The notes: generated by a model not told the origin, from the sequence alone. A DNA stretch of 64,000 bases from Thermodesulfobacteriota bacterium (GCA_963675595.2 CAXXLZ010000002.1:2368001-2432000), one strand, 5' to 3'; numbered from the stretch's first letter, positions 4,651 to 30,720 are shown. A program made the numbers and translations.

Positions 4651-4702
4651 CCGGATTCACGGCTCCGCTTCCGGCTTCGATCTCCAAACCGATCGCGGGC
4701 GG

Positions 4703-6085: not shown

Positions 6086-6241
6086 GCATCAATTCCTCGG
6101 CACGAATTTATCACATGATTAATCATCTTTTTGTCATATGCAAACATCGACACGGACCCTCCCCGGAAGACCTCGATACAGCACCTCTAATTTCTATTTT
6201 AATATCAATAAGATAGATCACGCAATCGCTTTCCAAGCCAT

Positions 6242-6257
6242 TGGCACGGAACTTGTT
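6242..6257 (+). promoter_or_regulatory. Putative sigma54 (-24/-12) promoter of the psr/phs operon
   Basis: TGGCACG-GAAC-TTGTT (GG-N10-GT variant); IHF-like TATCAATAAGATA about 30 nt upstream; divergent from a sigma54 activator. Confidence 0.6.
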
Positions 6258-6389
6258 AAAGCATTCTCACACCACGGTGAACCGTCCCGTCGTAGGGACA
6301 AGGGAAGAAACGAAACCGATTTCAGCCCTTCATCCGAAACTTATTTTGTTTATCAGATTCAACCGGATTGGCGCAACAAGGAGGCGACC

Positions 6390-13345: not shown

Positions 13346-15460
13346 TCATTTGGAAGCCGCAACCTCACCTAACGGAAGCCGTTTGAAGCGGCCGCCCACC
13401 ACGATGGGATCGCCTTTGTAGCCCAGTTTTTCGAAGTCGATGTAATCGGTGGAGTTCACCAGGTCGAGCACGTCCCTGCCTTTGTAGTAGAGCTGTTTGA
13501 AATCCACTCCGGCGGAAGCCAGGGCCTTGAAGTCCACGTCCCGGTTGTCCTGGTGACAACGGTTGCACGTTTTCTCCCCGGTCAGGCTCTTGTGGCATTG
13601 CACGCAGGAAAGAGCACGTTCCTTGGGAACGATCTCGTGGTTCAGGCCCCAATACATCTTGGTTTCCACCCACTCGAATTCACCGCTGTAAGGCAGGCCC
13701 GCCGCCTCCATGCCGTCCTTCAGGGACTTCTGCCAATCCAACGTCTTCCAGTAGCCTCCGGGGCCGAAAAGATGCGGAGCCAGCAGGATCCGGTTTTTCG
13801 CATCGGCCGGCTGCTTTCCGGCCATGATCTTGAACGGGTAGATTTTCGATTTGGGATCGCGGATGTCGCCCACGGGTTCCGTGATGTTCACCACGCCCGA
13901 GTCGGGAATCCGGTCGCCCAGCAGTTGACGTTTCACCTTGCCGTTATACCAAGTGTACACGGGCTTCACGCTTTCCTTCCAGAGGAACTCCCCTTTCTTC
14001 CAGAAATAGTCGGGCATGCCGTATTTGTCTTTGTTCACTACCCGCTTCTTGTCGCCGGCCTTGGACCAATCCCACCAGGTCTTGGTCGGCTTGCATTTGG
14101 CATAGATGGGACTGTGACACGTGACGCAGGCCAATGTTTCCGCGTGGCGATTCAGGTGGTGGGAAAGCAGATTCCCGCTCACGTGCGCCGGAGCGGAGTG
14201 ACAATCCTCGCAGGACCGGCTTCCCTCGGCCACGGGAAGGGAGAGGCTTCTCCCGGATATCTTGTGATTCCGGGTCTTGTGGCAATCCCGGCACTGGAAG
14301 TCCAGACCGCCCATGTGAACGTCGCAATTCCTGGAAGGATAATAGAGTACTCCGTTCATATCGCCGTGCTTGACGGCGTCCCCGCCTCCTCCCTGGAAGT
14401 GGCAGTCGCCGCAGTTCTTCCTGGTGGGTTTGCCCACGCTTTTGGCGACCTTGACCAGGTCCACCTGAGGATACGGCATTCCGGCGTTGGGAGGCGATTT
14501 CCGATAGGTGAGGGTCCCATCGTGACACACCAGGCAGTCCATACGGGTCTTGTCGGAAAAGTCGAAGTTCGCGTCCTTCCAACCGTAACCCGCGTGGCAA
14601 CTGGTGCATCGAGGCCAATTGCTCGGCAAAGCGATGCAGAAGTTGTTGATGGTGTTGGTGGCTTTTCCCGATTGGACCTGTTTTTCATGCCCCACGGTAT
14701 ACGGGGAAGGGCCTTTCCACAACCAGTGGGCCGCGGTGAGCATGTCTTCCGCCTGCGCGTCGTGACACCTCAAACACTCCCGGGTGACCTGAGTCGGTTC
14801 CGGATTGTCCGGCAGTTGAACCAGCTTGGAATGATCGGGGACCTGTTTCCCATGGCAATCCGTGCATCCCACGGGACCTTGTCCCATCTCTTTGTGGCAC
14901 CCCATACATTGCCTGTGATAGGCCGCCTTCAATCCCACTCGACCCGGCACCTCGGGCTTGAAGGATTCCTGATGACAGGCGGCGCAACGCTCGGTTTCCG
15001 ACGCGGCCGGGTCATCCGGACGGTAGTGGTGGCACTTGAGACAATCCCCCACCTTGGCCGCATGCTTCTTGTGCATAAAGCGAACCGGCTCGTAGTCGTT
15101 TTCCTCTTTCTGAAGGATGGGACTGTTCAAATACAGATATCCATGTTTCAGCTCGTTCATGGTGGGAGCCTGATCGCCCAAACGTTGCTTCCGCTCCCAG
15201 GATGATTCCTCCTTTACGTCTTTCACGAAGGCCACCGGTTCGGCGGCACGCTGCTCGGCCTCCAACTGATCCACGGGGTGGAAAGGAGTGCCGTCGGGCA
15301 TCGTGGGTTCCGGAGGAGGAGGAAGTTCCATGGCGGGAGCGGCCTTGGCCGCCGCCTTCTCCTCTGCGGTGGTGCCGACCCCCTGAAACAGAAAGGCCAA
15401 GCCCACCAGGATCACCAGGATCGAACCGGCCAAAAGCCGGGATTTCTTTTTCATGCTCAT
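13346..15460 (-). CDS. Octaheme tetrathionate reductase (Otr)-family cytochrome extended to 13 CxxCH motifs
   Basis: N-terminal anchor; 4 CxxCH in a c3-like N-domain; Otr core (HWLW, INNFC, CTSCHAGYGW, GGGGDAVKHGD, WDWSKAG) with 8 CxxCH; one extra CNRCH. Confidence 0.88.
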   Translation of the reverse strand: MSMKKKSRLLAGSILVILVGLAFLFQGVGTTAEEKAAAKAAPAMELPPPPEPTMPDGTPFHPVDQLEAEQRAAEPVAFVKDVKEESSWERKQRLGDQAPTMNELKHGYLYLNSPILQKEENDYEPVRFMHKKHAAKVGDCLKCHHYRPDDPAASETERCAACHQESFKPEVPGRVGLKAAYHRQCMGCHKEMGQGPVGCTDCHGKQVPDHSKLVQLPDNPEPTQVTRECLRCHDAQAEDMLTAAHWLWKGPSPYTVGHEKQVQSGKATNTINNFCIALPSNWPRCTSCHAGYGWKDANFDFSDKTRMDCLVCHDGTLTYRKSPPNAGMPYPQVDLVKVAKSVGKPTRKNCGDCHFQGGGGDAVKHGDMNGVLYYPSRNCDVHMGGLDFQCRDCHKTRNHKISGRSLSLPVAEGSRSCEDCHSAPAHVSGNLLSHHLNRHAETLACVTCHSPIYAKCKPTKTWWDWSKAGDKKRVVNKDKYGMPDYFWKKGEFLWKESVKPVYTWYNGKVKRQLLGDRIPDSGVVNITEPVGDIRDPKSKIYPFKIMAGKQPADAKNRILLAPHLFGPGGYWKTLDWQKSLKDGMEAAGLPYSGEFEWVETKMYWGLNHEIVPKERALSCVQCHKSLTGEKTCNRCHQDNRDVDFKALASAGVDFKQLYYKGRDVLDLVNSTDYIDFEKLGYKGDPIVVGGRFKRLPLGEVAASK

Positions 15461-16626
15461 GCGTGTCCCTCCTCTTTACGCGCGCTGAGGACCGGCAAGT
15501 AGGTCACACATAGTCGGTAAAAGAAGATGATCGAGGACGTCAGCCCCAGAGTGATCGCGATTTCCCCCACGTGAGGATAATAAGGCCGCACCGAGTACGC
15601 GGGCTGAAATCCCACGATGAAGACGTTCATTCGATTCAGAGCCACACCGAGCACGATCAAGGTGCAGGCCACGAAAAGCCATTTTCTGGAACGCCTGACC
15701 CCCGGCATAAGCAGCATAATCCAGGGCAAGGCCACGCCTCCCAGCAATTCCACCAGAAAAGAATGACTCTGTGCCGACCCTTCCAGCAGATAAACGTACG
15801 CTTTTCTGACCACGAGATCGCCGATCTTCAGGGCCAGGTAGATGCCCAACAGGGCAATGGTGATGCGCGTCAGAGGCCTGAGGATCTCCATCTCGTCTTC
15901 AAGGCCGAAGGACCCGGTGGCCAAAGTGGTTTCAAACACCACCATGGGATACCCCACCGCGATGGCCGAGGTAAGAAACAGCAGCGGCAGTATGGGTGTA
16001 TACCAGAGGGGATGGACCTTGGTGGGCGCGATCAGCAGGAGCGAGCCGAGTCCGGACTGGTGCATGCAGGAGAGGACCACGCCCAAGATGATGAGGGCAG
16101 GCATGATCTTTTCCAGAAAATGACCGATCTTGTGCAAAATAGGGAGGACCTTCCCTACGCGTTCGGAAATCACCGGCAGGAACTCGAGGTGAAGCACCGT
16201 GGTGTACACCATGACGCACATGGCTACCTCGAAGAGCACCGAATTGGGCTGCCAGTAGAATATGGGATGCCAGACCGCCCAGTACCGACCGATGTCGAAA
16301 AACAACCCCACGGCCACGAAGGTGTACCCCAGCATGGCGGTGAGCAGCGCCGGACGAGTCACCCCCTCGTACCGACGGCGCCCGAGTATCTGTACCAGCG
16401 CCGCGGTGGTGAATCCGCCGGCCGCCAGAGCCACACCGGTAGCCACATCGAAACCGATCCAAAGACCCCACGGATAGTAGTTGTCCAGGTTGGTTACGGC
16501 TCCCAAGCCGCCCACTAAACGGGCGATAATGAAAAGGAGGCCCAACAACATGAACGCGAACAGCAACTGTGTGCCCGGAGTCCAGAAACGAGCCTCCAGG
16601 GGACGTGGTGAACCATGGGCATCCAT
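15457..16626 (-). CDS. NrfD/HybB-family quinone-interacting membrane subunit
   Basis: YPWGLWIGFDV..GVALAAGGF, DIGRYW, SVLFEVAMC, LSCMHQSGLGSL, PLWYTP motifs; start ATG 16626. Confidence 0.92.
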   Translation of the reverse strand: MDAHGSPRPLEARFWTPGTQLLFAFMLLGLLFIIARLVGGLGAVTNLDNYYPWGLWIGFDVATGVALAAGGFTTAALVQILGRRRYEGVTRPALLTAMLGYTFVAVGLFFDIGRYWAVWHPIFYWQPNSVLFEVAMCVMVYTTVLHLEFLPVISERVGKVLPILHKIGHFLEKIMPALIILGVVLSCMHQSGLGSLLLIAPTKVHPLWYTPILPLLFLTSAIAVGYPMVVFETTLATGSFGLEDEMEILRPLTRITIALLGIYLALKIGDLVVRKAYVYLLEGSAQSHSFLVELLGGVALPWIMLLMPGVRRSRKWLFVACTLIVLGVALNRMNVFIVGFQPAYSVRPYYPHVGEIAITLGLTSSIIFFYRLCVTYLPVLSARKEEGHA

Positions 16627-17534
16627 CACTCTCCTCCATTCCTTTCCTTCCGATGATTGACCCACATGAAACCGGCCAATACCGCATACAGGCTCGCCGG
16701 GGCCCACATATAGCTGAAGATGCCGTGCTGGATGGTCTCCGTCAGTTTGGGCATGGGTTTGGCGGGTACCTTTTGAAATCCCACCTTTTCGAAGGGAACC
16801 CCGGACAGGTACATCCACGAAGTCCCACCGGCCTCGAATTCGCCGTATATCGCGTCCACATATCGTCCGGGATCCCGACGGATCTTTTCATGAGCCAGTT
16901 CGAGAAGCCGGGCCCGTGGTCCGAACCGGATGGCCTCCACGGGGCATGCGGCCGCGCATCCGGGCTTTCCCCCATCCTTGACGATGCGGTCGAAGCAAAA
17001 GGTGCACTTCCTGACCTGAGGCGCCAGGGCCTCGTGGTATTCATAAGCCGGTATCTGGAACGGACAGGCCACCAGACAGTAGCGACAACCGATGCATTTG
17101 GACGCATCGTAGTGGACCGGGCCGTAGTCCTTTTTGGTCAGCGCCCCCACGATGCAGGCCGAAACACACGCGGGTTCGAGACAATGCATGCACTGCACTT
17201 TGACGAAAGTAGGAACAAGCTGATTCCTCTCGTCCACCCGTCCCGGATACCACCGGTTCACCACCGTATAAGCGCCCACGTCCGGACGCCGTTTTTCATC
17301 CAGGACCCTGGGATCGTCAAAAGGGATCGCCGGTTCGGGAAGCCCGTTCACTTGGTTACACGCCTGTTCACATTTGCGACATCCTACGCAGACCGTCAGA
17401 TCGACCAGGCATCCATAAGCCCCGCCCGCCGGGTCGTCGGAAACGACTGCGGGAAAAGCGGCGGACGGACTCAGCGCCCAAGTCGTACCGCTCAAACCCA
17501 CAAATCTCAAAAATGCTCTACGATCCATACCCAT
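16626..17534 (-). CDS. Tat-exported 4Fe-4S ferredoxin subunit (HybA/HmcB-like)
   Basis: MDRRAFL Tat signal; CVGCRKC, CMHCLEPAC, CIGCRYC, KCTFC; YGEFEAGGTS; C-terminal TM. Confidence 0.92.
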   Translation of the reverse strand: MGMDRRAFLRFVGLSGTTWALSPSAAFPAVVSDDPAGGAYGCLVDLTVCVGCRKCEQACNQVNGLPEPAIPFDDPRVLDEKRRPDVGAYTVVNRWYPGRVDERNQLVPTFVKVQCMHCLEPACVSACIVGALTKKDYGPVHYDASKCIGCRYCLVACPFQIPAYEYHEALAPQVRKCTFCFDRIVKDGGKPGCAAACPVEAIRFGPRARLLELAHEKIRRDPGRYVDAIYGEFEAGGTSWMYLSGVPFEKVGFQKVPAKPMPKLTETIQHGIFSYMWAPASLYAVLAGFMWVNHRKERNGGE

Positions 17535-17612
17535 CCTTCCTTAAATTCCTCCGATTAACAGCAGAATACGGACCGCCCGTGCGAGTCGGTCGAAACGCCT
17601 TCGTGCCCAATA

Positions 17613-17628
17613 ATCAAGAAGCATGCCT
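17613..17628 (-). promoter_or_regulatory. Putative sigma54 promoter of the FeS-NrfD-Otr operon
   Basis: Minus strand AGGCATG-CTTC-TTGAT (GG-N10-GA variant); IHF-like TTTCAATTGGTTA upstream; divergent from a sigma54 activator. Confidence 0.5.
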
Positions 17629-17755
17629 GAACCACCCCCCCTGGGACAAACATGTAACCAATTGAAATTACAGCTATACAAGTACTTTGTTCACTATTTC
17701 TTGATCAGGGAACCTATACGGTGTTAAACAGGTGTTTAAACTGTTGGAGGCATGA

Positions 17756-19126
17756 ATGAACGAGCAGGAACTGCAGGTTTACTGGAAAGATATCCTGAAC
17801 ACCATGAACGAAGGTTTGATGCTCATCGGGGCGGACGGGACGATTCTATTGGCCAACAAGGCCCTCTCGGACCTGTCCGGGTACTCGGAAGAGGAACTTG
17901 TAGGGTCCAACTGCTCCCTGTTTCATTCGGAAATTTGTGAACATGCGAGACTGGAAGGCGGCGCCAAGTGGTGCACCCTGTTCCAGGAAGGAACCTTCAA
18001 CATGAAACGGTGCCTGATCCTTAGAAAGGACGGCACCTGGGTCCCGGTGCTCAAGAACGCCGCCGTACTCAAGGCACAAGACGGAAAGCTGCTGGGAGCC
18101 GTGGAAACCCTTACCGATATTACGGAAATCCACAAGCGAGACCAGCGTATCGAACAGCTTTCCCGATTGCTCGAAGACACCGGCAGCTTCCACGGGTTGG
18201 TGGGCAGGTCCGCCGCCATGCAACACGTTTATGAAATCGCGGAAAGGGCCGCGCAAAGCGACGCCCCGGTCATTATTTATGGAGAAAGCGGGGTGGGAAA
18301 GGAACTCGTGGCCGAAGTCATCCACGATGTGGGCAAACGGCGGGACGGTCCGTATGTTGCTCTGAATTGCGCCGCCCTTAATGAATCTCTCCTGGAAAGC
18401 GAGTTGTTCGGTCACCGAAAGGGCGCCTTCACGGGTGCCTACCGCCACAACGTGGGGAGATTCGAGGCCGCTCACGGAGGCGACATCTTCCTCGATGAAA
18501 TCGGCGATCTGCCCCTGTCCATGCAGGTGAAGTTGTTGCGGGTCCTGGAATCCAAAGAGTTCGAGCGAGTGGGAGACCACCGGTCCATTTCGGTGGACGT
18601 CCGAATCATCGCCGCCACCAACCGGGACCTCGACAGATTGGTGGCACAAGGCCTGTTCAGGCAGGATTTCTATTTCAGGATCAACGTCATCCCAATCCAC
18701 GTTCCGCCGCTGCGGGAACGCATGGAGGACGTTCCCCTGTTGGTCCGCCATTTCATCGAAAAACTGGTGGAAAGAACGGGCAAGCGAATCCATGGAATCG
18801 CATCCGAAACCATGGACCTGTTCATGCGTCACTCGTGGCCCGGCAACGTCCGGGAACTCAAAAGCGCGTTGGAATACGCCTTTGTCATCGCGGACGAAGG
18901 GCACGTGGAACCTCGCCACCTGCCCGCCTCGATATTAGGAAAGGACATGATTCGGCAACAGATCGTACCGGACACGGAAGGAGAGGAGAAAAAGGCGCTT
19001 CTCGAGGCTCTGGACAAGGCCGGAGGCAATCAGACCAAAGCCGCCGAGATATTGGGAGTCTGTCGAACAACCGTATGGAACCGGATGCGAAAATACGGAA
19101 TTCAGATCAACAAAGGACTGAACTGA
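17756..19126 (+). CDS. sigma54-dependent activator, Cys-rich PAS-AAA+-Fis HTH (paralog of 4703-6085)
   Basis: GESGVGKE, GAFTGA, WPGNVREL, GGNQTKAAEILG HTH. Confidence 0.95.
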   Translation: MNEQELQVYWKDILNTMNEGLMLIGADGTILLANKALSDLSGYSEEELVGSNCSLFHSEICEHARLEGGAKWCTLFQEGTFNMKRCLILRKDGTWVPVLKNAAVLKAQDGKLLGAVETLTDITEIHKRDQRIEQLSRLLEDTGSFHGLVGRSAAMQHVYEIAERAAQSDAPVIIYGESGVGKELVAEVIHDVGKRRDGPYVALNCAALNESLLESELFGHRKGAFTGAYRHNVGRFEAAHGGDIFLDEIGDLPLSMQVKLLRVLESKEFERVGDHRSISVDVRIIAATNRDLDRLVAQGLFRQDFYFRINVIPIHVPPLRERMEDVPLLVRHFIEKLVERTGKRIHGIASETMDLFMRHSWPGNVRELKSALEYAFVIADEGHVEPRHLPASILGKDMIRQQIVPDTEGEEKKALLEALDKAGGNQTKAAEILGVCRTTVWNRMRKYGIQINKGLN

Positions 19127-22821: not shown

Positions 22822-23182
22822 GAAAAGCACTATATATAACCCGGGGTCCGGGATACAACGGAATAGTCGCCCGGAGCGACATCAAACGTCGGCACATACG
22901 CGGTCTTTCTTCGGTCGCCGCTTGATATTCGAGGGATAAATCCCTATGGTTGCACAGTTCGGTCATCATTGGCATAGGTTCTTGCGTTTTCGAAATCGGC
23001 TGTGCCCGCAGCTTTCTTCGGGTCTCACGTGACGCGCGTCCTATATGAGGTCCGAACGTTATTATTCGGAGAGTGATCCTTCGGCGCCGTTCGAGGCGGG
23101 ACTCGGTCGGGTCGCAGCTTCGAAGAATCAAAAACGCCGTTCCGCACCATCGACACGCTTAGGAAACCCCGAGGTGGAGCCC

Positions 23183-24037
23183 ATGACTGAAGCAGCCGAC
23201 CGTCGCTCGGCCGAAACCCTCGCCGTCCCTCCCCGTGTGGTGTCCGTTGTCTTCGCAGCCGGCAAGGGAACAAGAATGACCGGGTACGACGGCAACAAGA
23301 CCTTGCTGCCCTTATTACCCACTGATTCGCCTTTCCAGGGGGCGCGCCCCCTCCTTCACGAAGTGCTGTCCAATCTTCCTTCGGGCCCCAAGATTCTTGT
23401 GGTAAATCACCGAAAAGAAGACGTCATTTCAGCCACCGAGGAATTCGAGGTTTCCTGTGCCGAGCAGCCCGTAACCAACGGAACCGGGGGCGCTTTATTG
23501 GCGGCCCGGCCTTTGCTCATGGACGCCGTGGAGTCCGTGGTGCTTATCACCATGGGAGACGTGCCCCTCGTGCGCCGGAAAACCTACGAAGACCTCGTCG
23601 ACATGGCGCGTTACGCGCCTCTGGTGGTATTGGGGTTTCGTCCTTCGGAGCCGGCGCGTTACGGAGCCGTGGAAATGTCGGAAGAACGAGTTCGGCGAAT
23701 TACGGAATGGGCCTACTGGAAGGACTACTCCCCGGAGAAACGAGCCGGGCTCACGATTTTCAATTCCGGTATTTACGCGGCACAGAGAGATGTCCTTCTG
23801 GAAATGCTCCCCAAGCTCGAAAGGAATCCACATGTCGTCCACAAAGAACGGAACGGGCGCGTGGAACCCATCGAGGAGTTTTTCATTACGGATCTGGTGG
23901 AATTGATGGTCGCCGAGGGCATGTCCCCGAATTGTGTGGTCTGCGCCGATGAACGGGAAGTAATGGGCGTGGATACTCCGGAGGCTTTGAGGAGAGTTCA
24001 AGAAATCTACCGAAAACATTGGGCCGACTCCGCTTGA
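23183..24037 (+). CDS. Stand-alone GlmU-N-like nucleotidyltransferase
   Basis: AAGKGTRM, Q..TNGTGGA, MGDVPL, NSGIY, FITDLV, MGVDT; no hexapeptide acetyltransferase domain. Confidence 0.85.
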   Translation: MTEAADRRSAETLAVPPRVVSVVFAAGKGTRMTGYDGNKTLLPLLPTDSPFQGARPLLHEVLSNLPSGPKILVVNHRKEDVISATEEFEVSCAEQPVTNGTGGALLAARPLLMDAVESVVLITMGDVPLVRRKTYEDLVDMARYAPLVVLGFRPSEPARYGAVEMSEERVRRITEWAYWKDYSPEKRAGLTIFNSGIYAAQRDVLLEMLPKLERNPHVVHKERNGRVEPIEEFFITDLVELMVAEGMSPNCVVCADEREVMGVDTPEALRRVQEIYRKHWADSA

Positions 24038-24159: not shown

Positions 24160-26004
24160 ATGGAAAAAGACGACCTGCATCGAACTCTGACGATTCAACA
24201 TGCCGGGGAGCTTTGCATCGGATTCCTTTCCCGAACGGCGCCCACTGAATTGGAGGGGTTCGAGAAATGCTTCGCCCAGATTGTGGAAAAATCGGACTGG
24301 GAGTACCCCGAGGAATCTCTGGTCCGAAGAAGTTTCGCCGGATATGCCTCCTTTGGATGCGCGAACGCCCCGTGGGGCGTCTTCGAAATCAAAGCGCAAC
24401 CCGACGCGCCCCGTACCATCCGCGGTAAACAATACCAGATTCTCGTGGCCGGCCTTTTCCTGGACTTCCTACGTTCCACGAAAAGGTCCCGATTCGAACA
24501 GGTTAAGGAAGAGTTCGAGGAACTCCTGGACTCGCTGATCAGAGCCTACTACGGATCCACATCCAACATCACCGGAGAAGACCTCAATCTGCTCCGAGAA
24601 GAGCTGAACCGCATCGGCCTGAATTATTTTCAGGTGTCCGGACATGTGAGGGAAGGTCATGTCCGGACCGAGACTCACCTGTCCGAATTCGAGGAACTCG
24701 CTCTCATTTGGGGAAGAGGCCCCATGATGGAAAAACGAATCGAAGAACTTCGGCGTCTCGCCCGGTCCCCCATGCCCATTCTTCTCACCGGAGAGACCGG
24801 TACGGGAAAGACCTTCTTAGCCGGTTTGATCCATAAGCTCAGTCCTCGGGCGGAGCGCCCCTGCTTGACGATCAACTGCGCCGCCATCCCCTCCAATCTG
24901 TTGCAGAGTGAACTATTCGGATATCGACGCGGCGCCTTTACCGGAGCGGTGCACGACAAGATGGGACTCCTCAAGAGCGCTGAAGGCGGGACCGTCTTGC
25001 TGGACGAAATCGGCGACTTGTCCAAGGAGGACCAAGTCAAGCTGCTGCAGGTATTGGAGGAGGGCAGAATATTGCCTTTGGGAAGCCTTAAAGAGACCAA
25101 GGTCGACGTTCGCTTTCTGGCGGGAACCAATCGCCCTTTGGAAGAAGACGTAAGAGAAGGACGATTCCGCAGCGACCTGTACTTCAGGCTCAAAGGAGCC
25201 CATTTTCATTTGCCCCCCTTGCGGGAACGTATGGAAGTCTTCGACGAATTGGTGCTGAGAATACTCCGACGCACGCTTCCGGACGAGAATTCTCCGCCCC
25301 GGCTCGCTTCACCGGAGGCCATGGAACTTCTGCGACTCCATTCATGGCCGGGCAACGTTCGGGAATTGGACAATGTGCTTCGGCGAGCTGCGGCTTTGGC
25401 GACGGGCGGCACCATCCGTCCACAACACTTACCCGACGAATTGTTGCCCGATCGATTCGTTCCTTTCCGGGGAGAATCCACTCGACGCCGGCTGTTGGCG
25501 CTCACATTGGCGGGGCTGGGACTGAACGATCCGTATCTAGGCAATCTCCTCTACGAAACATCGGGCATGAGTTTCACCGTCAATGATCTCTTGGTTCGCC
25601 ATCCGGCACTGGCGGCCGCAGGCGAAACGATCCGCCGTGAAAGCGTCTTGCGTAAGGCCCGGCGTCTCCTCGCGCCCTGCAAAGGTCCGATTCTCGAAGA
25701 GAACGGGCGTAGAGGTCCCGCGGTCCGTCTGCGTCTAAAACCGGCATTTCTGGAGGAGAACGACCGGCGACTGTTCCAAGCCGTGGACTCGGCGGTCCGC
25801 CGGGTGGGAGCTCCCAAACGCACCGCCTTCGCCCTGTACGACGCACTCAAAGCACATGCAGGCGAAGACACGCCCCTGGCGGTTCCCGCCGCGATGGCGG
25901 GACTTCGCCTTGCTGAATTCCTGGGCCTGATTCGTTTGATTGAGGAACAGGGGCAGGCGAAGGTTGAAGGAGACATGGTTCGTATTGAAACAACATCGTG
26001 TTGA
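24160..26004 (+). CDS. Atypical sigma54-dependent activator (unrecognised N- and C-terminal domains)
   Basis: GETGTGKT, NCAAIP..SELFG, GAFTGA, LDEIG, WPGNVREL; start uncertain. Confidence 0.88.
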   Translation: MEKDDLHRTLTIQHAGELCIGFLSRTAPTELEGFEKCFAQIVEKSDWEYPEESLVRRSFAGYASFGCANAPWGVFEIKAQPDAPRTIRGKQYQILVAGLFLDFLRSTKRSRFEQVKEEFEELLDSLIRAYYGSTSNITGEDLNLLREELNRIGLNYFQVSGHVREGHVRTETHLSEFEELALIWGRGPMMEKRIEELRRLARSPMPILLTGETGTGKTFLAGLIHKLSPRAERPCLTINCAAIPSNLLQSELFGYRRGAFTGAVHDKMGLLKSAEGGTVLLDEIGDLSKEDQVKLLQVLEEGRILPLGSLKETKVDVRFLAGTNRPLEEDVREGRFRSDLYFRLKGAHFHLPPLRERMEVFDELVLRILRRTLPDENSPPRLASPEAMELLRLHSWPGNVRELDNVLRRAAALATGGTIRPQHLPDELLPDRFVPFRGESTRRRLLALTLAGLGLNDPYLGNLLYETSGMSFTVNDLLVRHPALAAAGETIRRESVLRKARRLLAPCKGPILEENGRRGPAVRLRLKPAFLEENDRRLFQAVDSAVRRVGAPKRTAFALYDALKAHAGEDTPLAVPAAMAGLRLAEFLGLIRLIEEQGQAKVEGDMVRIETTSC

Positions 26005-26106
26005 AATGATCTTGTTGGGATACTATGAAACAGACGTTCGGAACGTCCAAGCTGCGACGTCGCGCACAAAGATCGTCATCCCCATGGAGGACGAGAAGCC
26101 GGAATC

Positions 26107-27807
26107 ATGAACGGACGTAATATCAGGAACATGGGGGCTCAGACGGGCCGATATCTTTCTTGGATAGGCGCACTGCTGGTCCTTGTTCTGGTACTCCTGC
26201 CGGCCTTGTTTCCGCCGGAAAGACGTCCCTCGCCCGTGGGAAGCGCCCCAAGAGCGGGAGGAGAGCTCAGGATCGACCTTCCCATTCCTCTGGGAGAATT
26301 CGATCTGCACTCTAAGTCGGGTAACGGAGCCTCCTTCGCTCTCCAAATGATGGTCAACATGCTTTGCCGTCTCGGGCCCGACGGTTCACCGCAGCCCGAA
26401 CTCGCCAAGTCCTGGACAATGACCCAACAAGGCCGAAAGTGGGAATTCATTCTCCATTCCCATGTCCGTTTCCACGACGGCACTTTCATGACTCCCAGGG
26501 ACGTCATCTATTCCCTGGAAACTCAATTTCGAAACGTGATTCCCCAGTTTCTGCGCATCGCCCGGTTTCGCGAAGATTCTCATCCGGATCGGGTGCTCGT
26601 GGAACTGGACCACCCGGTTCCCAACTTTCTGTCGTATCTTGCCTACGTCCCCATCTTCCCGTCCGGATCCTTCTCAAATCCACGCTGGTTCTCACATCCT
26701 GTGGGCACCGGTCCCTTTCGATTCCAGAGTCGCGACGGCCGGCGGGTGATCGTCCTCTCCTCCTTTCAGGATTATTTTGAAGGACGTCCCTGGCTCGATC
26801 GGCTGGTGCTGCGCCACCCCGGAGGTGAAGCGGAACTCCCTTGGAGGCTGTTGGAAGAAAAGACGGACTTGGTGCTGGAAATGAACCCCTGCTATGATTC
26901 CCTGCTGAAGACGGCCGATCACCTCCTTCACGTCGAGTCCGGCCCTCAGCATGTTCATTTCGTAATTCTGTTCAACACGAGCAAGCCTCCCCTAAACGAT
27001 GCCCGCATCCGAAACGCCCTGGCCATGGGCATTCAAACAAACGGTTTGAGCCCGAATCTTTTGCCCGACAAACAGAATCCGATGTTCGTTCCCTTGTCGA
27101 ATCAAAGATTCCAGCGCGCCGTGGAACTTCTGTCGGAGGCCGGTTGGAGAGACCACGACGGAGACGGCTACCTGGACAGAAACGGACAACGATTCGAGTT
27201 CTCCATCCTGGTGCCGGAAGAATATGCGCCCGAATACGACACCGTTTTGCGGGTCATGGCCCAGTGGAAACGCTTGGGAATCAGAGCCGACTGGCATGGG
27301 GGAAGCTACGCGAATCACTATGAAACGCGTCTCAATCCGGGCGATTTTCAAGCGACCTTATTCTATTTCCGACTCATGCCCGACGAGCCCGAATTTCTAT
27401 ATAATTTATGGCACCATAGCGGAATATGGAACTTCAGTCGTTATCACGACGAGGAAGCGGATCGCATTATCGAGGCCGCCATGACGGAAAGCGATCCTCA
27501 CCGGCGGCGGGACCTCTATGCCGGACTGAAGAAGGTCCTGGATCGGGACCATCCTTTCATTTACCTGGGGAGCAAACAGGTGAGCTGTTCCCTGTCCAAC
27601 TATTTTCAGGGCATGGAAGAAATTTACGGCCAAGGCCGATTCTCAAGAAGGTTTCACAAAGTCCGCCTGCTGGATGGAGCGCGCCCGGGCTCGCACCAGT
27701 TGACCGCCTACGCCCGGTCGCAGCCCCGAGCATTCTGGCAGACCTGGTTTCATCCGCTGGACCGGGTGGTCCGGACACTCTTTCCCATCGAGGACGATCA
27801 GAAGTAA
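26107..27807 (+). CDS. Family 5 (peptide/nickel) extracytoplasmic solute-binding protein, orphan
   Basis: PELAKSW, VRFHDGT, PVGTGPF, FNTSKPPLND..IRNAL, LLSEAGW.D.DGDG, NFSRY motifs; N-terminal TM anchor. Confidence 0.9.
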   Translation: MNGRNIRNMGAQTGRYLSWIGALLVLVLVLLPALFPPERRPSPVGSAPRAGGELRIDLPIPLGEFDLHSKSGNGASFALQMMVNMLCRLGPDGSPQPELAKSWTMTQQGRKWEFILHSHVRFHDGTFMTPRDVIYSLETQFRNVIPQFLRIARFREDSHPDRVLVELDHPVPNFLSYLAYVPIFPSGSFSNPRWFSHPVGTGPFRFQSRDGRRVIVLSSFQDYFEGRPWLDRLVLRHPGGEAELPWRLLEEKTDLVLEMNPCYDSLLKTADHLLHVESGPQHVHFVILFNTSKPPLNDARIRNALAMGIQTNGLSPNLLPDKQNPMFVPLSNQRFQRAVELLSEAGWRDHDGDGYLDRNGQRFEFSILVPEEYAPEYDTVLRVMAQWKRLGIRADWHGGSYANHYETRLNPGDFQATLFYFRLMPDEPEFLYNLWHHSGIWNFSRYHDEEADRIIEAAMTESDPHRRRDLYAGLKKVLDRDHPFIYLGSKQVSCSLSNYFQGMEEIYGQGRFSRRFHKVRLLDGARPGSHQLTAYARSQPRAFWQTWFHPLDRVVRTLFPIEDDQK

Positions 27808-27932
27808 CCTGCTGAAATCCCGACACTTCCTGCGAAAAAACCACTCCAATTCCCTGCCGAACACCTCTGCACGCTTCTTGCCTCTCCTTGCGACGACGCG
27901 CGTTCAAATCCAACACACAAGGAGAAACCGCA

Positions 27933-28019
27933 ATGCACGTAACGATTCGTTTGGCAACGTACGATTTCCGCTCGGCGCAACAGCTCTGCTGCTATATCGG
28001 CCCGCAAATTCTGACCTAA
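27933..28019 (+). CDS. Putative RiPP precursor peptide, 28 aa MHVTIRLATYDFRSAQQLCCYIGPQILT
   Basis: AAGGAG RBS (27919-27924) 8 nt before ATG; Cys-Cys core; directly upstream of radical SAM/SPASM gene; below ORF-track length cutoff. Confidence 0.75.
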   Translation: MHVTIRLATYDFRSAQQLCCYIGPQILT

Positions 28020-28056
28020 GAAACCGATCAAGCCCGCCGGCCGGCTGATTTCATTC

Positions 28057-28078
28057 AGGGGTCTCCGGACCCCTTTTT
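28057..28078 (+). terminator. Intrinsic terminator between precursor and maturase
   Basis: AGGGGTC-TCCG-GACCCCT followed by TTTT (and a further T-run). Confidence 0.75.
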
Positions 28079-28099
28079 ACCTTTTTCTCGGGGAATTCC

Positions 28100-29455
28100 A
28101 TGCATACGATCAACCCTGTTCCCTCCAGGTATTTGGTGGAACACGAAACAGCTTGGGACGGGACGCCTTGGACGGTCCTGTTCCATTCCCTGAACCGGGG
28201 TCTCAAAATCCTGGAGCCCTCAATATGGCGGGACTTCCAATCCGGAAGAATGGATGGGAGGCATCGGCCGCTGTTCCAGGAACTGTGCGAAATGGGATTT
28301 CTGGTGTCGCCCTCGCTGGACGAAACCAGATTGCTCTCCAATTGGCGTTACAGCCGATTCCTGGATACCCGCTCCATGACGTTCAAAATCCAGGTGACGG
28401 AAGCCTGCAACCTGCGATGCGTATTCTGCATTCAGGAGGGCATGAAGGGGCCGGTTCACATGTCCGACGAAACCTCTCGCCGGTGTGCCGCGCTCATCGA
28501 AGAACTCATTGAAAGCAGGCGCCCGGACTCCATCAAGATCATGATCACCGGAGGCGAACCACTGCTCAACTTTGAAAGCATCCAAACGCTTGGGGCTCTG
28601 GTTCATTTCTGCAGGGGCCGAGGAGTCGACGTTGAATTCAGCCTGACCACCAACGGGGTGCTTCTGGATCGTTCCACGGCGAGAAATCTCAGCCGTTTGG
28701 GCATGCATACGGTCCGCGTCTCTCTGTTCGGTCCGCCCGATCTTCATGATCGACACCGGGTGTTCGAAGGCGGCCGAGGGTCCTACGATCTCATCGAGCG
28801 CAACCTCGTTGAAGCATCGGAGTTTCTGACTTTCCGTCCCGCGATCCAGTACGACGAGGACACCTCCGACTACCTCCGATATCCCGAGCTCTTTGATCGT
28901 CTGCTGGACGTCGGACTGGGCGGTTCGGTGCATGACATGGAATTCGGTGCTTTGCTTCCCCGCGAACTGGATTTCGACCGACGCGCCCGGCCGGATTGTT
29001 CAGGCCCGAGCCGTCCCGACATCTACTTCTTCCTGGAACAAGAGGCTCGGAAACGGGGATTCCGTGAATTGGGACCGCCGCCTTCCGTGGGATGCCTCGC
29101 CAACCGGCGAGGTTCCCTGGTCATCGACGTCAACGGCAACCTGATAAGCTGTCCGGGAGTTTCCCACGAATGGCACCCGGAGCTCACGTATGGGAACGTG
29201 TACCGAGGCGTGGATTTCACCGCGGAATCCCAGATCATCGCCCCGCCGTTGCCGGACGGCTGCGGTGAATGCTCCCTGGCCGGCCTGTGCGACGGCGGTT
29301 GTCGCCAACAAGCACTGGTCGGAAGCGGAACCTTTCACGGTGTATTCTGCAGCAAGGAATATCTCGAGTCCGTCATACGGCAATACATGGAAGACACGGT
29401 GATCGGGTATCTCAAAGAAAACGCGCCCCGATTCAACAATGCCCAAGCGGCATGA
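28100..29455 (+). CDS. Radical SAM/SPASM peptide maturase
   Basis: N-terminal RRE-like segment ending L.EMGFLV; CNLRCVFC; GGEPLL; TTNG; full SPASM Cx13Gx4C..Cx2Cx5Cx3C..C. Confidence 0.92.
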   Translation: MHTINPVPSRYLVEHETAWDGTPWTVLFHSLNRGLKILEPSIWRDFQSGRMDGRHRPLFQELCEMGFLVSPSLDETRLLSNWRYSRFLDTRSMTFKIQVTEACNLRCVFCIQEGMKGPVHMSDETSRRCAALIEELIESRRPDSIKIMITGGEPLLNFESIQTLGALVHFCRGRGVDVEFSLTTNGVLLDRSTARNLSRLGMHTVRVSLFGPPDLHDRHRVFEGGRGSYDLIERNLVEASEFLTFRPAIQYDEDTSDYLRYPELFDRLLDVGLGGSVHDMEFGALLPRELDFDRRARPDCSGPSRPDIYFFLEQEARKRGFRELGPPPSVGCLANRRGSLVIDVNGNLISCPGVSHEWHPELTYGNVYRGVDFTAESQIIAPPLPDGCGECSLAGLCDGGCRQQALVGSGTFHGVFCSKEYLESVIRQYMEDTVIGYLKENAPRFNNAQAA

Positions 29456-30720
29456 ACCGGCATCTCCGAATCCTGGCCGGGGCGGACTTTCTCTCCGTTT
29501 CGGCCGGACAACTATTGGGGTTGGCTCTTTGTGAGCTCCTGGTTTTAGGCAGACACCAGGGCGAGAGGAATCTGCTCTTCCTCTTGGCGGCCGCTCAGAC
29601 ACCGGCTTTTTTGCTCTCCTTCGTATCGGGCGGACTACTGGATCGGTCCAACCCTGCGCGCATCCTTTTCGTCTGTGGGGCGGCCAAGGCCCTGCCCGCG
29701 CTTCTTCTCTCCCTCGTTCCCGGCTCCCATGTGGTTGTGTTCCTCATCTACGCCTTCCACTCCGCGGCGGACCTGCTTCATATTTCGGCCAGGAGCACTT
29801 TGGTGCCCTTTCTCTTCCCTCCCGAAGACATCATGCATGCCAATGCGTTTCGGCAAAAAGCGGCTTTGACCGGCGGCATCTTGGGGCCCATCTGCATGGG
29901 CTGGATCGTGTCGCAGGCAGGACCCGTCAAGGCACTCATTTTGTGCGCCTTTCTTTGCTTCATTTCCGGAGTGCCGGGAGTCCTTCTGATGAAACCCTCG
30001 GAGATGTCACGACGACGACTCGTCCGGGAATCTCCGCCTCCGTCCGCCACGGCGCGAAACCTGCCGGTTCTCCAATGGCTTCTCCTTCTGTTCATGTCCG
30101 CCGGGGCGGGCGGGCTGTTCCAGTACGCGTCGCCTCTTTGGATCGACGGCCGATCCTGGGGAAATGCCGCAGCCTTGGGCGCCGTATTCTCGCTGTTCAA
30201 CGCCGGCTCCTTCGCAGGAGCAATCCTGGTTTCCAGAATGGGATGTATGTCGAGAGTCCCGATGCTCAGATTGGGCATGATTTCGGAAGGCGCCGGGATC
30301 CTCGCTTTGGCCGCACCTCTCTGCTCCCTCCCGCCGTTTCTTGGTATTTTCATGTTCTTGGGAGTCACCTCTGTTTCTCGTCATATCCTTATCGAGAGTC
30401 GGATCCAGGCGTTGGCCCCGCCGATGTTCATGGGACGAACCATGTCCGCAGCGTACGGCCTGAGAGCTCTGGCAACGGTCTCCGGGGCGGGATTGGGTTT
30501 TCTGGTGTTCTCCCGTTTCGGCATCAACGCCCTGCTTCTGGCCTGCGGATTTTTTCTGTTCCTCGGCGCTCTGTGCAATCCGCCGTCCCCGGCTTCGTTG
30601 AAAGAAGGATTCAAGCCTTTCAGCCGCGCACCCCTCCGCCGCGGGGCTGCAGTTTCGCCTCCCATCCCGGCCGAACAAAAGGCTCCGTCTTGCAAGGAAC
30701 GCCCGAATCTGTCAGACTAA
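29452..30720 (+). CDS. MFS transporter (probable exporter)
   Basis: About 12 hydrophobic segments, GGLLDR motif A, Q..APP.FMGR; ATGA coupling to the rSAM gene. Confidence 0.85.
   Translation: MNRHLRILAGADFLSVSAGQLLGLALCELLVLGRHQGERNLLFLLAAAQTPAFLLSFVSGGLLDRSNPARILFVCGAAKALPALLLSLVPGSHVVVFLIYAFHSAADLLHISARSTLVPFLFPPEDIMHANAFRQKAALTGGILGPICMGWIVSQAGPVKALILCAFLCFISGVPGVLLMKPSEMSRRRLVRESPPPSATARNLPVLQWLLLLFMSAGAGGLFQYASPLWIDGRSWGNAAALGAVFSLFNAGSFAGAILVSRMGCMSRVPMLRLGMISEGAGILALAAPLCSLPPFLGIFMFLGVTSVSRHILIESRIQALAPPMFMGRTMSAAYGLRALATVSGAGLGFLVFSRFGINALLLACGFFLFLGALCNPPSPASLKEGFKPFSRAPLRRGAAVSPPIPAEQKAPSCKERPNLSD

Follow-up and report, generated by a model that had tools for sequence, protein, structure and literature searches.

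The window analysed here, a stretch of 64,000 nucleotides from the genome of a Thermodesulfobacteriota bacterium (GCA_963675595.2, CAXXLZ010000002.1:2368001-2432000), contains a cluster of five genes, all of them co-oriented on the + strand in the ORF map. The genes and associated elements are the following:

24160..26004 (alternative TTG start at 24034), + strand: atypical sigma54 enhancer-binding protein (PF00158 and AAA_lid_14)
26107..27807, + strand: orphan family-5 periplasmic solute-binding protein, SBP_bac_5 (PF00496)
27867..27882, + strand: degenerate promoter-like element of the -24/-12 (sigma54) type, its end lying 50 nt 5' of the peptide ATG
27919..27925, + strand: Shine-Dalgarno sequence of the peptide gene, AAGGAGA, 7 nt 5' of the ATG
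27933..28019, + strand: precursor peptide gene of 28 codons, a conserved short ORF upstream of the radical SAM gene
28057..28084, + strand: GC-rich hairpin and T-run, a candidate attenuating terminator between the peptide and maturase genes
28100..29455, + strand: radical SAM/SPASM peptide maturase, TIGR04280-related, with an N-terminal extension of about 95 residues
29452..30720, + strand: MFS transporter (PF07690), proposed inner-membrane exporter

This layout confirms a preliminary description of the locus, which had reported five co-oriented genes including a short ORF with a strong ribosome-binding site before a radical SAM gene. The translational coupling it had noted is also present, the stop of the radical SAM gene and the start of the MFS gene (PF07690 at 64.6 bits) overlapping as ATGA at 29452-29455, and no protease gene was found among the ORFs of the cluster, as had been remarked. 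The alternative TTG start of the activator overlaps the stop of the gene upstream. Gene content, conservation, family placement and a predicted interface between the binding protein and a kinase were computed here, conservation being followed in 23 loci of the maturase clade (the clade loci), with L111 (119 aligned residues) and L112 (25% identity) left out of the counts.

The 28-residue peptide has a hydrophobic, strand-like stretch near its N-terminus, and its invariant residues are Cys19-Cys20 and Pro24. The expectation that a conserved short Cys-Cys peptide would accompany the radical SAM homologues was borne out, since an ORF with the Cys-Cys-x3-Pro motif, common to all the peptides found, lies just upstream of the enzyme in 19 of the 23 clade loci. 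Two of the other four are interrupted by contig ends; in G046 and G030, the 500 nt that precede the radical SAM gene yielded no peptide. A scan of the genome for the motif gave nine matches, among which only the window ORF adjoins a strong match to the geopeptide-maturase model, the other eight being taken, by eye, as chance. Judged on this conservation, the 28-codon ORF is a real gene. Its exact sequence is absent from a collection of 15 billion proteins. The peptide has no match to the geopeptide model TIGR04229 at E<=10 and does not reach its membership cut-off of 30 bits; six-frame searches of five genomes (G000, G001, G002, G003 and G014) with this model gave no match at the peptide locus either. 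The best match of TIGR04229 in the genome (window 57379-57432, 20.2 bits, E 0.006) falls inside an M48/TPR protein and was taken as chance.

In the spacer that follows the peptide gene, the hairpin at 28057..28084 has seven pairs, five of them G-C, and a T-rich tail, and it also appears in the minimum free energy fold. The hairpin scan as a whole was not above shuffled sequences (8 found against 8.9 expected), and the peptide-maturase spacer of the window has a z-score of -0.63; strong hairpins occupy this spacer in five other loci (z -2.3 to -4.5).

The maturase belongs to the radical SAM superfamily, with PF04055 at 59.9 bits against a cut-off of 29.5 and an invariant CxxxCxxC motif formed by C103, C107 and C110. 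The SPASM pattern consists of seven C-terminal cysteines, Cx9-15Gx4C ... Cx2Cx5Cx3C ... C. The complete seven-cysteine domain previously ascribed to the enzyme was recovered, with C332, C351, C388, C391, C397, C401 and C417 invariant in nine of nine aligned homologues, and G346 likewise; no match to the Pfam SPASM model was obtained at E<=0.01, Pfam reporting only Radical_SAM and Fer4_12. For the RRE-like N-terminus of the preliminary description, the support is indirect: about 95 residues precede the SAM motif, and the HMMs of RiPP maturases (TIGR04280, TIGR04463, CefB) align from residue 22-26 onwards. The PqqD/RRE Pfam model gave no match at E<=10 in any of eight N-terminal pieces.

The best family for this enzyme is TIGR04280 (196.6 bits, E 7.1e-58, residues 22-431, model positions 16-422 of 428; 196.1 bits in the six-frame search), whose curated cut-off of 400 bits is not reached. 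In a quick-search tree of 38 rows, it falls in a 12-row clade (SH-aLRT 97) that is sister to a 22-row group holding 13 rows of at least 400 bits, and a branch with support of 100 sets it apart from QhpD-like outgroups; on the QhpD model, the enzyme scores 98.6 bits. The grouping with anaerobic sulfatase maturases (anSMEs) that the preliminary description had regarded as contrary to its proposal was not seen: TIGR03942, with a cut-off of 349, aligns to the SAM core alone and scores 61.5 bits, and the PDB anSME match (E 6e-7) covers residues 99-234 only. A Cys-Cys short ORF directly upstream of a TIGR04280-related radical SAM gene, used here as the working definition of a geopeptide-like superfamily, is what the window contains. 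The sequence data support the short ORF and the radical SAM/SPASM enzyme, with its coupled MFS, as a conserved precursor-maturase pair.

The closest known relative is the geopeptide system (TIGR04229 plus TIGR04280), in which a strand-like leader and a Cys-Cys core are likewise encoded directly upstream of a radical SAM/SPASM enzyme with an N-terminal extension, the TIGR04280 model covering the full length of the window enzyme. Each of the two systems is linked to a TonB-dependent receptor, to a sensor kinase and to a periplasmic binding protein that has no transporter. The differences are several: the window enzyme scores 196.6 bits against a cut-off of 400 and sits in a separate 12-row clade, with a peptide that lacks a TIGR04229 match; the Pro at +4 after the Cys pair is invariant in the window clade, whereas true geopeptides vary at this position; SBP_bac_5 takes the place of PF04392 as binding protein; the MFS is coupled to the enzyme and the receptor/kinase module is unlinked; and regulation would involve sigma54 factors, including an atypical activator. 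Cys-Cys ORFs were found at 20 of the 23 true-geopeptide loci examined, most of them with an acidic stretch, which agrees with the earlier remark that geopeptide leaders are acidic and that of the window is not; a Cys-Cys short ORF also precedes the radical SAM gene in three of five intermediate loci. The earlier view of an undescribed RiPP system holds only in part: the pair represents a divergent sister clade of a system already defined in databases, and it falls below both geopeptide HMM cut-offs. The literature search returned no study of geopeptide or TIGR04280, families that are database-defined, and nothing on TonB-linked radical SAM RiPPs or on RaS-RiPPs in Geobacter. The two papers retrieved, PMC9389541 (streptococcal RaS-RiPPs) and PMC7996765 (Aneurinibacillus genomes), have no bearing on the window system.

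With respect to characterised enzymes, the ranthipeptide maturase PapB, the SCIFF maturase CteB, QhpD and the sactipeptide synthases share with the window enzyme a radical SAM core and a seven-Cys auxiliary-cluster region, and the thioether-forming radical SAM/SPASM maturases act on cysteine-bearing short substrates encoded next door and appear among its sub-threshold HMM and PDB matches. However, the window enzyme scores far below their cut-offs (PapB, 120 against 340; SCIFF, 63 against 425), and CteB matches it over the SAM core only; thioether chemistry on the Cys-Cys pair is putative.

The family-5 binding protein (PF00496, 162.3 bits against a gathering score of 32.4) has an N-terminal hydrophobic segment, and it is an orphan, as had been claimed: the flanking ORFs encode neither an ABC permease nor an ATPase. 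It adjoins the peptide-radical SAM pair in 13 of the 23 clade loci, five of the other ten being cut contigs. The pair can exist without it, since five clade loci with ample flanks (G040, G046, L104, L106 and L107) have no binding protein nearby. The MFS gene lies directly 3' of the radical SAM gene in 11 of the 23, and both the binding protein and the MFS recur across several families of the phylum. The adjacency in 13 loci supports the assignment of the family-5 binding protein to the peptide-radical SAM system.

In several relatives, the neighbourhood is more extensive. The order in L034 and L036 is response regulator, TonB receptor, SBP5, peptide, radical SAM, MFS and Cache kinase, whereas G003 has kinase, regulator, atypical activator, SBP5, peptide and radical SAM, with the receptor alongside. 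SBP5 and a Cache kinase also occur in five of eight intermediate-scoring loci, and the 11 true geopeptide loci scanned contain a TonB receptor (11/11), a PF04392 binding protein (9) and a kinase (8), counts that rest on 80 of 155 ORFs submitted. When the G003 receptor and kinase are compared with the genome under study, their best homologues adjoin at G000:C2:2.5987-2.6026 Mb (receptor, 40% identity, E 2e-130, a reciprocal match; kinase, E 1.4e-49, the next match being 1.1e-29). This receptor/kinase/regulator module lies about 205 kb from the window cluster. The same split, with this module away from the peptide cluster, is seen in G001 and G002. On the LuxO model, whose cut-off is 800, the unlinked response regulator reaches 303.5 bits.

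Complex prediction supports docking of the window binding protein on the unlinked kinase, at its periplasmic domain, with scores of 0.73, 0.72 and 0.74, the best control giving 0.01; the mark used is reached by 58 of 80 solved complexes and by 2 of 110 mismatched pairs. At least 58% of contacts are common to the runs, the partner pLDDT is at least 79, and the alignments, made for this analysis, are shallow (15 and 10 rows). The 60 best matches of the kinase profile among PDB sequences all leave the periplasmic part of the kinase uncovered. As the sensing module is unlinked here, it is connected to the cluster by orthology and by a single structure prediction. It had been suggested that the binding protein captures the peptide, which may feed back on the activator; SBP5 does appear as part of the system, but the structural model predicts its docking on the unlinked kinase, rather than direct signalling to the adjacent activator.

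Periplasmic binding proteins that act through sensor kinases are known from LuxP-LuxQ, which responds to AI-2, and TorT-TorS, and siderophores are sensed by two-component systems such as PfeS/PfeR. The window system would resemble these systems in a transporter-less periplasmic binding protein, here predicted to dock on a kinase, and in an output through a sigma54 regulator. It would differ from them in the ligand, a self-made radical SAM-modified peptide needing a TonB receptor to reach the periplasm, in the family of the binding protein (family 5) and in the Cache-like sensor domain.

The activator at the head of the cluster contains the AAA+ sigma54 domain (PF00158, 201.7 bits) and AAA_lid_14, and the GAFTGA loop visible in its alignment identifies it as a sigma54 enhancer-binding protein. 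It was rightly called atypical, as Pfam detects neither a Response_reg receiver nor HTH_8 and the protein is not of the canonical NtrC type; the activators at L034, L035 and L083 carry both domains, and so does the unlinked regulator of the genome under study. Its orthologues adjoin the SBP or the radical SAM gene in G001, G002, G003, G014, G046 and L038. The N- and C-terminal pieces gave no Pfam match at E<=10. For the C-terminal domain, the model (pLDDT 88.4, pTM 0.80) predicts a tandem winged helix in place of the Fis-type HTH; the best fold matches are all winged-helix modules, none of them decisive (Foldseek E 0.015-0.2; VIA Z up to 7.1), and the profile search against PDB sequences returned only matches of E 0.7-1.3, to heat-shock-factor winged helices. 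The N-terminal domain is modelled as all helices with low confidence (pLDDT 62.2) and is of no known family, a word-based homologue search retrieving only the protein itself. The literature search found no account of a sigma54 enhancer-binding protein with a winged-helix DNA-binding domain.

The sigma54 -24/-12 consensus consists of GG and GC doublets 10 nt apart. The element of the window is TG-N10-GC, with canonical spacing and TG replacing the GG doublet. Elements of this type precede the peptide gene at the corresponding position in 13 loci of relatives, as GG-N10-GC (6 loci), GG-N10-GA (6) or GG-N10-GT (1), against a background of 0.05 strong sigma54 sites per kb per strand in this genome. 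G001 and G002 have GG-N8-GC, with the hexamers 2 nt too close, and G014 has none. Thus, sigma54 control is weakest exactly in the sub-clade of the window. No sigma54 site was found in the divergent kinase/receptor region of the unlinked module.

The make-export-sense module proposed in the preliminary description is suggested by the gene content of the relatives. Its sensing arm, which that description could not see, would be made up of a TonB receptor together with a Cache-type histidine kinase and the sigma54 response regulator of this kinase. We consider that the locus makes a small ribosomal peptide product that is exported, re-imported and sensed, and give this reading a probability of about one half. 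Its chemistry, export, re-import, binding-protein ligand and regulatory wiring we infer as follows. The N-terminal domain of the maturase would bind the 28-residue precursor through its N-terminal strand-like leader, and the enzyme would then modify the peptide at or around the invariant Cys-Cys-x3-Pro core, most likely by introducing one or two thioether cross-links of the sacti- or ranthipeptide type. The coupled MFS pump would carry the peptide out over the inner membrane; no route for its export over the outer membrane was identified. After accumulating outside, the peptide would return over the outer membrane through the dedicated TonB-dependent receptor and be captured in the periplasm by the family-5 binding protein, and the loaded protein would dock on the periplasmic domain of the sensor kinase. 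The sigma54 response regulator of this kinase and the atypical activator that heads the cluster would jointly drive the -24/-12-type peptide promoter, closing an autoinducing loop. The circuit would be split in this organism, with activator, binding protein, precursor, maturase and pump in the window, and with the receptor, the kinase and its response regulator at a distance of about 205 kb.

A metallophore function, in which the modified Cys-Cys peptide would chelate a metal outside the cell, return through the TonB receptor and be held as a complex by SBP5, in the manner of methanobactin or nickel-metallophore uptake, the kinase merely reporting the loaded chelate, seems unlikely. Methanobactin operons contain a precursor, a TonB-dependent receptor (MbnT), a family-5 binding protein (MbnE) and an exporter; the window system is similar in that its ribosomal peptide is accompanied by an exporter, by a TonB receptor and by a family-5 binding protein that lacks a transporter. 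Two invariant adjacent cysteines would also suit a chelator, and the nearest NCBIfam and PDB relatives of the binding protein, all far below cut-offs, include oligopeptide, nickel, staphylopine and metallophore binders. The binding protein reaches no NCBIfam equivalog (the best, Opp4A, at 107.5 bits against 650), and none of the 60 PDB matches listed for it is a chain named as methanobactin-binding, which is no test of relatedness. Unlike the window system, methanobactin operons have a modifying enzyme that is not a radical SAM protein; the window system includes a kinase and sigma54 regulators and shows no sign of being regulated by metals. Neither a metal-responsive regulator nor an ABC permease occurs in any annotated locus, and the receptors reach the cut-off of no specific siderophore or copper family, the best being of B12 type (186-207 bits against 600). 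FecCD and Peripla_BP_2 beside the pair in L085, considered as metallophore import, belong to a CobS/CobT/CobU cobalamin salvage operon. The thiols would be consumed if the enzyme makes thioethers, and the dedicated kinase, the sigma54 regulator and the predicted binding-protein/kinase interface fit sensing better.

Somewhat less probable still is an antimicrobial RiPP with autoinduction, a bacteriocin-like product for which the MFS would provide export and self-protection and the kinase and regulator would boost synthesis, as nisin, once sensed, boosts its own production. This proposal accounts for the same gene content as a sensed peptide signal and overlaps that reading without excluding it. 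The hairpin after the precursor gene is typical of bacteriocin operons, and radical SAM/SPASM enzymes make several antimicrobial sactipeptides and ranthipeptides. But there is no immunity gene, and a leader-cleaving ABC exporter or protease is likewise absent; the core, at about 10 residues, is very short, and it would be odd for a producer to import a toxin through a TonB receptor of its own. An intracellular cofactor-like or redox peptide with the binding protein, MFS and activator as unrelated neighbours is improbable, for although five clade loci have peptide and radical SAM only, with neither binding protein nor MFS nearby, the ATGA coupling, the recurrence of the binding protein (13/23) and the MFS (11/23) in several families of the phylum, and the linkage of receptor and kinase to the pair across the whole superfamily argue against it.

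Returning to the sensed peptide, we propose, tentatively and as possible rather than probable, a peptide autoinducer circuit of an undescribed kind in anaerobes bearing an outer membrane, where a Cys-Cys peptide cross-linked by a radical SAM enzyme would be re-imported through a TonB receptor and sensed by a family-5 binding protein that signals to a Cache kinase and on to sigma54 promoters. In this organism, the circuit would be split and would include a second-tier activator with a tandem winged helix for the Fis-type HTH and a new helical N-domain.

Peptide quorum sensing is textbook knowledge in Gram-positive bacteria and, to our knowledge, almost unknown among diderms, one reason being that the outer membrane does not let peptides of this size through unaided. 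The literature search found no description of such peptide signalling in outer-membrane-bearing bacteria. The locus provides a compact and testable set, comprising a substrate of 28 residues, a single enzyme, a binding protein and a kinase domain whose interface has been predicted, and it points to an unannotated class of sigma54 activators with a predicted winged-helix DNA-binding end. Should the product be a metallophore instead, it would represent a new chemical class of ribosomal metal chelator in relatives of sulfate reducers. If the proposed circuit is true, the diderm gap would be filled by a self-made, enzyme-modified peptide that has a TonB importer, a periplasmic receptor and a kinase of its own, and the geopeptide families, so far named in databases, would gain a function.

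The five genes of the cluster lie head-to-tail on the + strand, the co-orientation that had been read from the sequence alone, and a hairpin separates the peptide gene from the enzyme gene:

24160 (ATG) or 24034 (TTG) to 26004, + strand, sigma54 activator; the TTG overlaps the stop codon of the upstream nucleotidyltransferase gene
26107-27807, + strand, family-5 solute-binding protein
27933-28019, + strand, short ORF of 28 codons, preceded at 7 nt by the ribosome-binding site AAGGAGA
28057-28084, between the peptide and enzyme genes, GC-rich hairpin of seven pairs with a T-run
28100-29455, + strand, radical SAM enzyme of 451 residues
29452-30720, + strand, MFS transporter

The last two genes are translationally coupled, as had been claimed, the ATG of the transporter overlapping the stop codon of the enzyme as ATGA. 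The flanks encode a RecD2-type helicase, a GlmU-like nucleotidyltransferase, pyruvate kinase, a phosphoglucomutase-like protein and others, with no ABC permease, ATPase or protease among them, which agrees with an orphan binding protein and a cluster devoid of proteases. The gene for the GlmU-like sugar-1-phosphate nucleotidyltransferase (23045-24037) abuts that of the activator, a position kept in the relatives G001 and G002 and at locus L103 and not in more distant loci, and it is probably a matter of synteny rather than a component of the system. On the minus strand, at 13346-19126, genes for a multihaem cytochrome c (704 aa), an NrfD-type membrane subunit and a 4Fe-4S protein adjoin a divergent PAS-domain sigma54 activator with a normal HTH_8, and this group looks like a separate respiratory module.

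On comparative grounds, the short ORF is a conserved gene. The radical SAM (rSAM) enzyme has homologues with 31-52% identity at 23 loci (the clade loci), taken from eight genomes of the kin search, five genomes of further species and ten metagenome contigs; rows repeating G002 and G014 were not counted anew, and L111 and L112 were excluded as too distant or too short. A short Cys-Cys peptide of ~28-34 codons, of the kind anticipated in the preliminary description, is found directly upstream on the same strand at 19 of these loci. In all 19 peptides a Cys-Cys pair precedes three variable positions and a proline, at ~4-9 residues from the C-terminus, and most have a hydrophobic run near the N-terminus. 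Two of the four peptide-less loci (L102, L110) are cut by contig ends, and no peptide ORF was found within 500 nt in the other two, G046 and G030. A motif scan of the whole window genome gave nine matches, and only the window ORF adjoins a strong match to the geopeptide maturase model; the other eight were judged by eye to be chance. The exact peptide sequence is absent from a collection of 15 billion proteins, so that no pipeline behind that collection had called it as a gene. The peptide-enzyme spacer holds strong hairpins in the five other loci that were folded (z -2.3 to -4.5), which fits a high precursor-to-enzyme transcript ratio.

In the enzyme, Pfam detects a radical SAM core, whose CxxxCxxC motif is C103/C107/C110, and the seven C-terminal cysteines are invariant across nine aligned homologues, bearing out the complete 7-Cys SPASM pattern initially described. 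Among NCBIfam models it best matches TIGR04280, that of the geopeptide maturase (196.6 bits, E 7e-58, residues 22-431, below the cut-off of 400 bits), lower-ranked matches being other RiPP maturase models. The anaerobic sulfatase maturase model reaches 61.5 bits over the SAM core only, setting the enzyme apart from that group, and the closest solved structures likewise align with the SAM core only. The N-terminal ~95 residues fall within the span of RiPP-maturase models and have no Pfam match to PqqD; the label 'RRE-like' is plausible for this region. Judging from the enzyme class only, the chemistry would consist of thioether links from one or both cysteines.

The relation to geopeptides was examined in a sample of 401 Thermodesulfobacteriota genomes, of which 25 have a TIGR04280 match over the cut-off (true geopeptide systems) and 47 have one at E<=1e-35. 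A Cys-Cys ORF with a variable core lies upstream in 20 of the 23 true geopeptide loci examined, and the leaders at those 20 loci are mostly acidic, as the preliminary description had it. The window peptide does not match the 22-position geopeptide precursor model, TIGR04229. In a tree of 33 enzymes and five outgroup proteins, obtained by a quick search, the window enzyme belongs to a 12-row clade (SH-aLRT 97) whose sister is a 22-row group that includes the true maturases along with some intermediates; the QhpD-like outgroups are set off by a branch of support 100, while P0048, meant as an outgroup, fell inside on a long branch. Because of this placement, and because both curated cut-offs are missed, the system is best classed, from its sequences, as a divergent family, sister to the geopeptide system and a member of it by neither cut-off.

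Two further observations concern the precursor model. Its best match in the window genome (57379-57432 in the window, 20.2 bits, E 0.006) falls within an M48 peptidase/TPR protein of 500 residues (55988-57490) and was taken as chance. Five identical weak matches (12.4 bits), each in a 61-residue frame, are found in the same genome, designated G000 (G000:C1:1429963, C2:913569, C2:1645230, C2:4282577 and C2:4285138), and point to a repeated element with at least five copies.

Elements of the -24/-12 type, searched for with a sigma54 consensus, occur ~50-125 nt upstream of the peptide ATG in clade loci. They have the form GG-N10-GC at six loci (L034, L036, L037, L038, L105, L109), GG-N10-GA at six others (G040, L035, L104, L106, L107, L108) and GG-N10-GT in G003. 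Since L034 and L036 are close kin, as are L104, L106 and L107, the independent cases are fewer than 13; strong sites have a background of 0.05 per kb per strand in the window genome. The window element (27867-27882) has the correct spacing with TG in place of GG, in G001 and G002 both hexamers are present but sit 2 nt too close together, and no such element was seen upstream of the G014 peptide. Sigma54 control of the precursor appears to have good support across the clade, whereas in the window's sub-clade it is uncertain.

The activator at the head of the cluster is atypical, in line with the first reading: it has an AAA+ sigma54 domain with GAFTGA and lacks both a receiver and HTH_8. Its N-domain, for which no family was found, is all-helical in a low-confidence prediction. 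The last 175 residues of the activator are a conserved feature of seven cluster-linked activators. A search of 1.8 billion proteins returned the same domain in ~30 of its 150 leading representatives, many being ~380-residue proteins made of AAA+ plus this domain. Its model (pLDDT 88.4, pTM 0.80) comprises two helix-strand modules, and the leading fold matches are all winged-helix (SelB, Fur/PerR, MarR, IclR and Fic C-termini), with middling scores that are no proof of kinship (Foldseek E 0.015-0.2, VIA Z up to 7.1). The domain profile matches 16 of the 401 genomes, mostly in 230-320-residue frames of one other family, and only G000, G345 and G351 carry it in frames of the size of a sigma54 enhancer-binding protein. 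In that family, f17, the domain was found in 12/12 sampled genomes (loci L114-L141), mostly in two copies per genome, and its proteins are small (230-320 residues) and not sigma54 activators. From its place at the cluster head, and next to the regulator in G003, the activator may form a second regulatory tier.

Neighbouring genes in relatives, assigned by Pfam scans, extend the system. At L034 and L036 the order is sigma54 response regulator, TonB-dependent receptor, family-5 binding protein, peptide, rSAM enzyme, MFS transporter and dCache-HAMP kinase; L035 has regulator, receptor, binding protein, peptide and enzyme; and G003 has kinase, regulator, atypical activator, binding protein, peptide and enzyme, with the receptor alongside. 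Among the 23 clade loci, the binding protein adjoins the peptide-enzyme pair in 13 (five of the remaining ten being cut contigs), an MFS gene comes directly after the enzyme in 11, and seven have an adjacent receptor and/or kinase; in five loci the pair stands by itself despite ample flanking sequence. On the metagenome contig L105, the binding-protein gene (1042-2630) and the kinase gene (4082-6355) are each in two overlapping or adjacent frames, through either decay or assembly error. Intermediates (240-312 bits) have a family-5 binding protein and a Cache kinase in 5/8 cases, and the true geopeptide loci scanned have a TonB receptor (11/11), a PF04392 binding protein (9/11) and a kinase (8/11), counts based on 80 of 155 candidate ORFs, with L074 contributing none.

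In G000, the best homologue of the G003 receptor (40% identity, E 2e-130, a reciprocal match) neighbours that of the G003 kinase (28% over the full length, E 1.4e-49, the second match being 1.1e-29) at G000:C2:2598743-2602621, a site ~205 kb away from the cluster. A sigma54 response regulator and the kinase (G000:C2:2598674-2600500, minus strand) occupy one strand of this module, and the receptor and a 921-residue protein the other. Because the module lies apart from the cluster in G000, G001 and G002, an ancestral cassette seems to have been split in the family of the window genome. The 921-residue protein (L097:12627-15392, that is, G000:C2:2602626-2605391, outside the window), encoded immediately after the TonB-dependent receptor, matches nothing in Pfam or NCBIfam; in G001 the receptor is likewise followed by a homologue with 40% identity, others are located elsewhere in G002 and G003, and the protein may belong to the uptake module as well.

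A complex was modelled with residues 46-566 taken from the binding protein (15-row alignment) and residues 40-282 from the kinase (10-row alignment), the kinase part being its periplasmic stretch between two predicted membrane helices. Residues 381-388 of the binding protein and 92-99 of the kinase lie at the predicted interface. The scores were 0.73, 0.72 and 0.74, against 0.01 for the best control; at least 58% of contacts are common to the runs, and partner pLDDT is at least 79. The docking mark was reached by 58/80 solved complexes and 2/110 mismatched pairs, counts that apply only roughly because our own alignments were used. Among the 60 best PDB sequence matches of the kinase profile there is none that spans the periplasmic part, which makes a score drawn from memorised sequences unlikely; a fold-level likeness to other binding-protein/kinase pairs possibly lies behind the score. 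The prediction is support, not proof, for docking of the orphan binding protein on the periplasmic domain of the unlinked kinase.

Taking into account gene content, conservation and this one interface prediction, the most economical reading, to which we give a probability of about 0.5, is that the peptide would be made, modified, exported, re-imported, bound and sensed. A metallophore would show an identical layout of importer, binding protein and exporter, but the loci annotated contain no metal regulator, permease or specific receptor family, and we consider it unlikely. An autoinducing antimicrobial, which overlaps with the signalling reading, seems a little less probable still.

In searches of openly accessible articles, nothing was found on this peptide-rSAM system. 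The common denominator of the superfamily would be a modified peptide, an outer-membrane importer, a transporter-less periplasmic binding protein and a sensor kinase. What is new here is the split architecture, the predicted interface between binding protein and kinase, the invariant Cys-Cys-x3-Pro core of the clade and the winged-helix activator.
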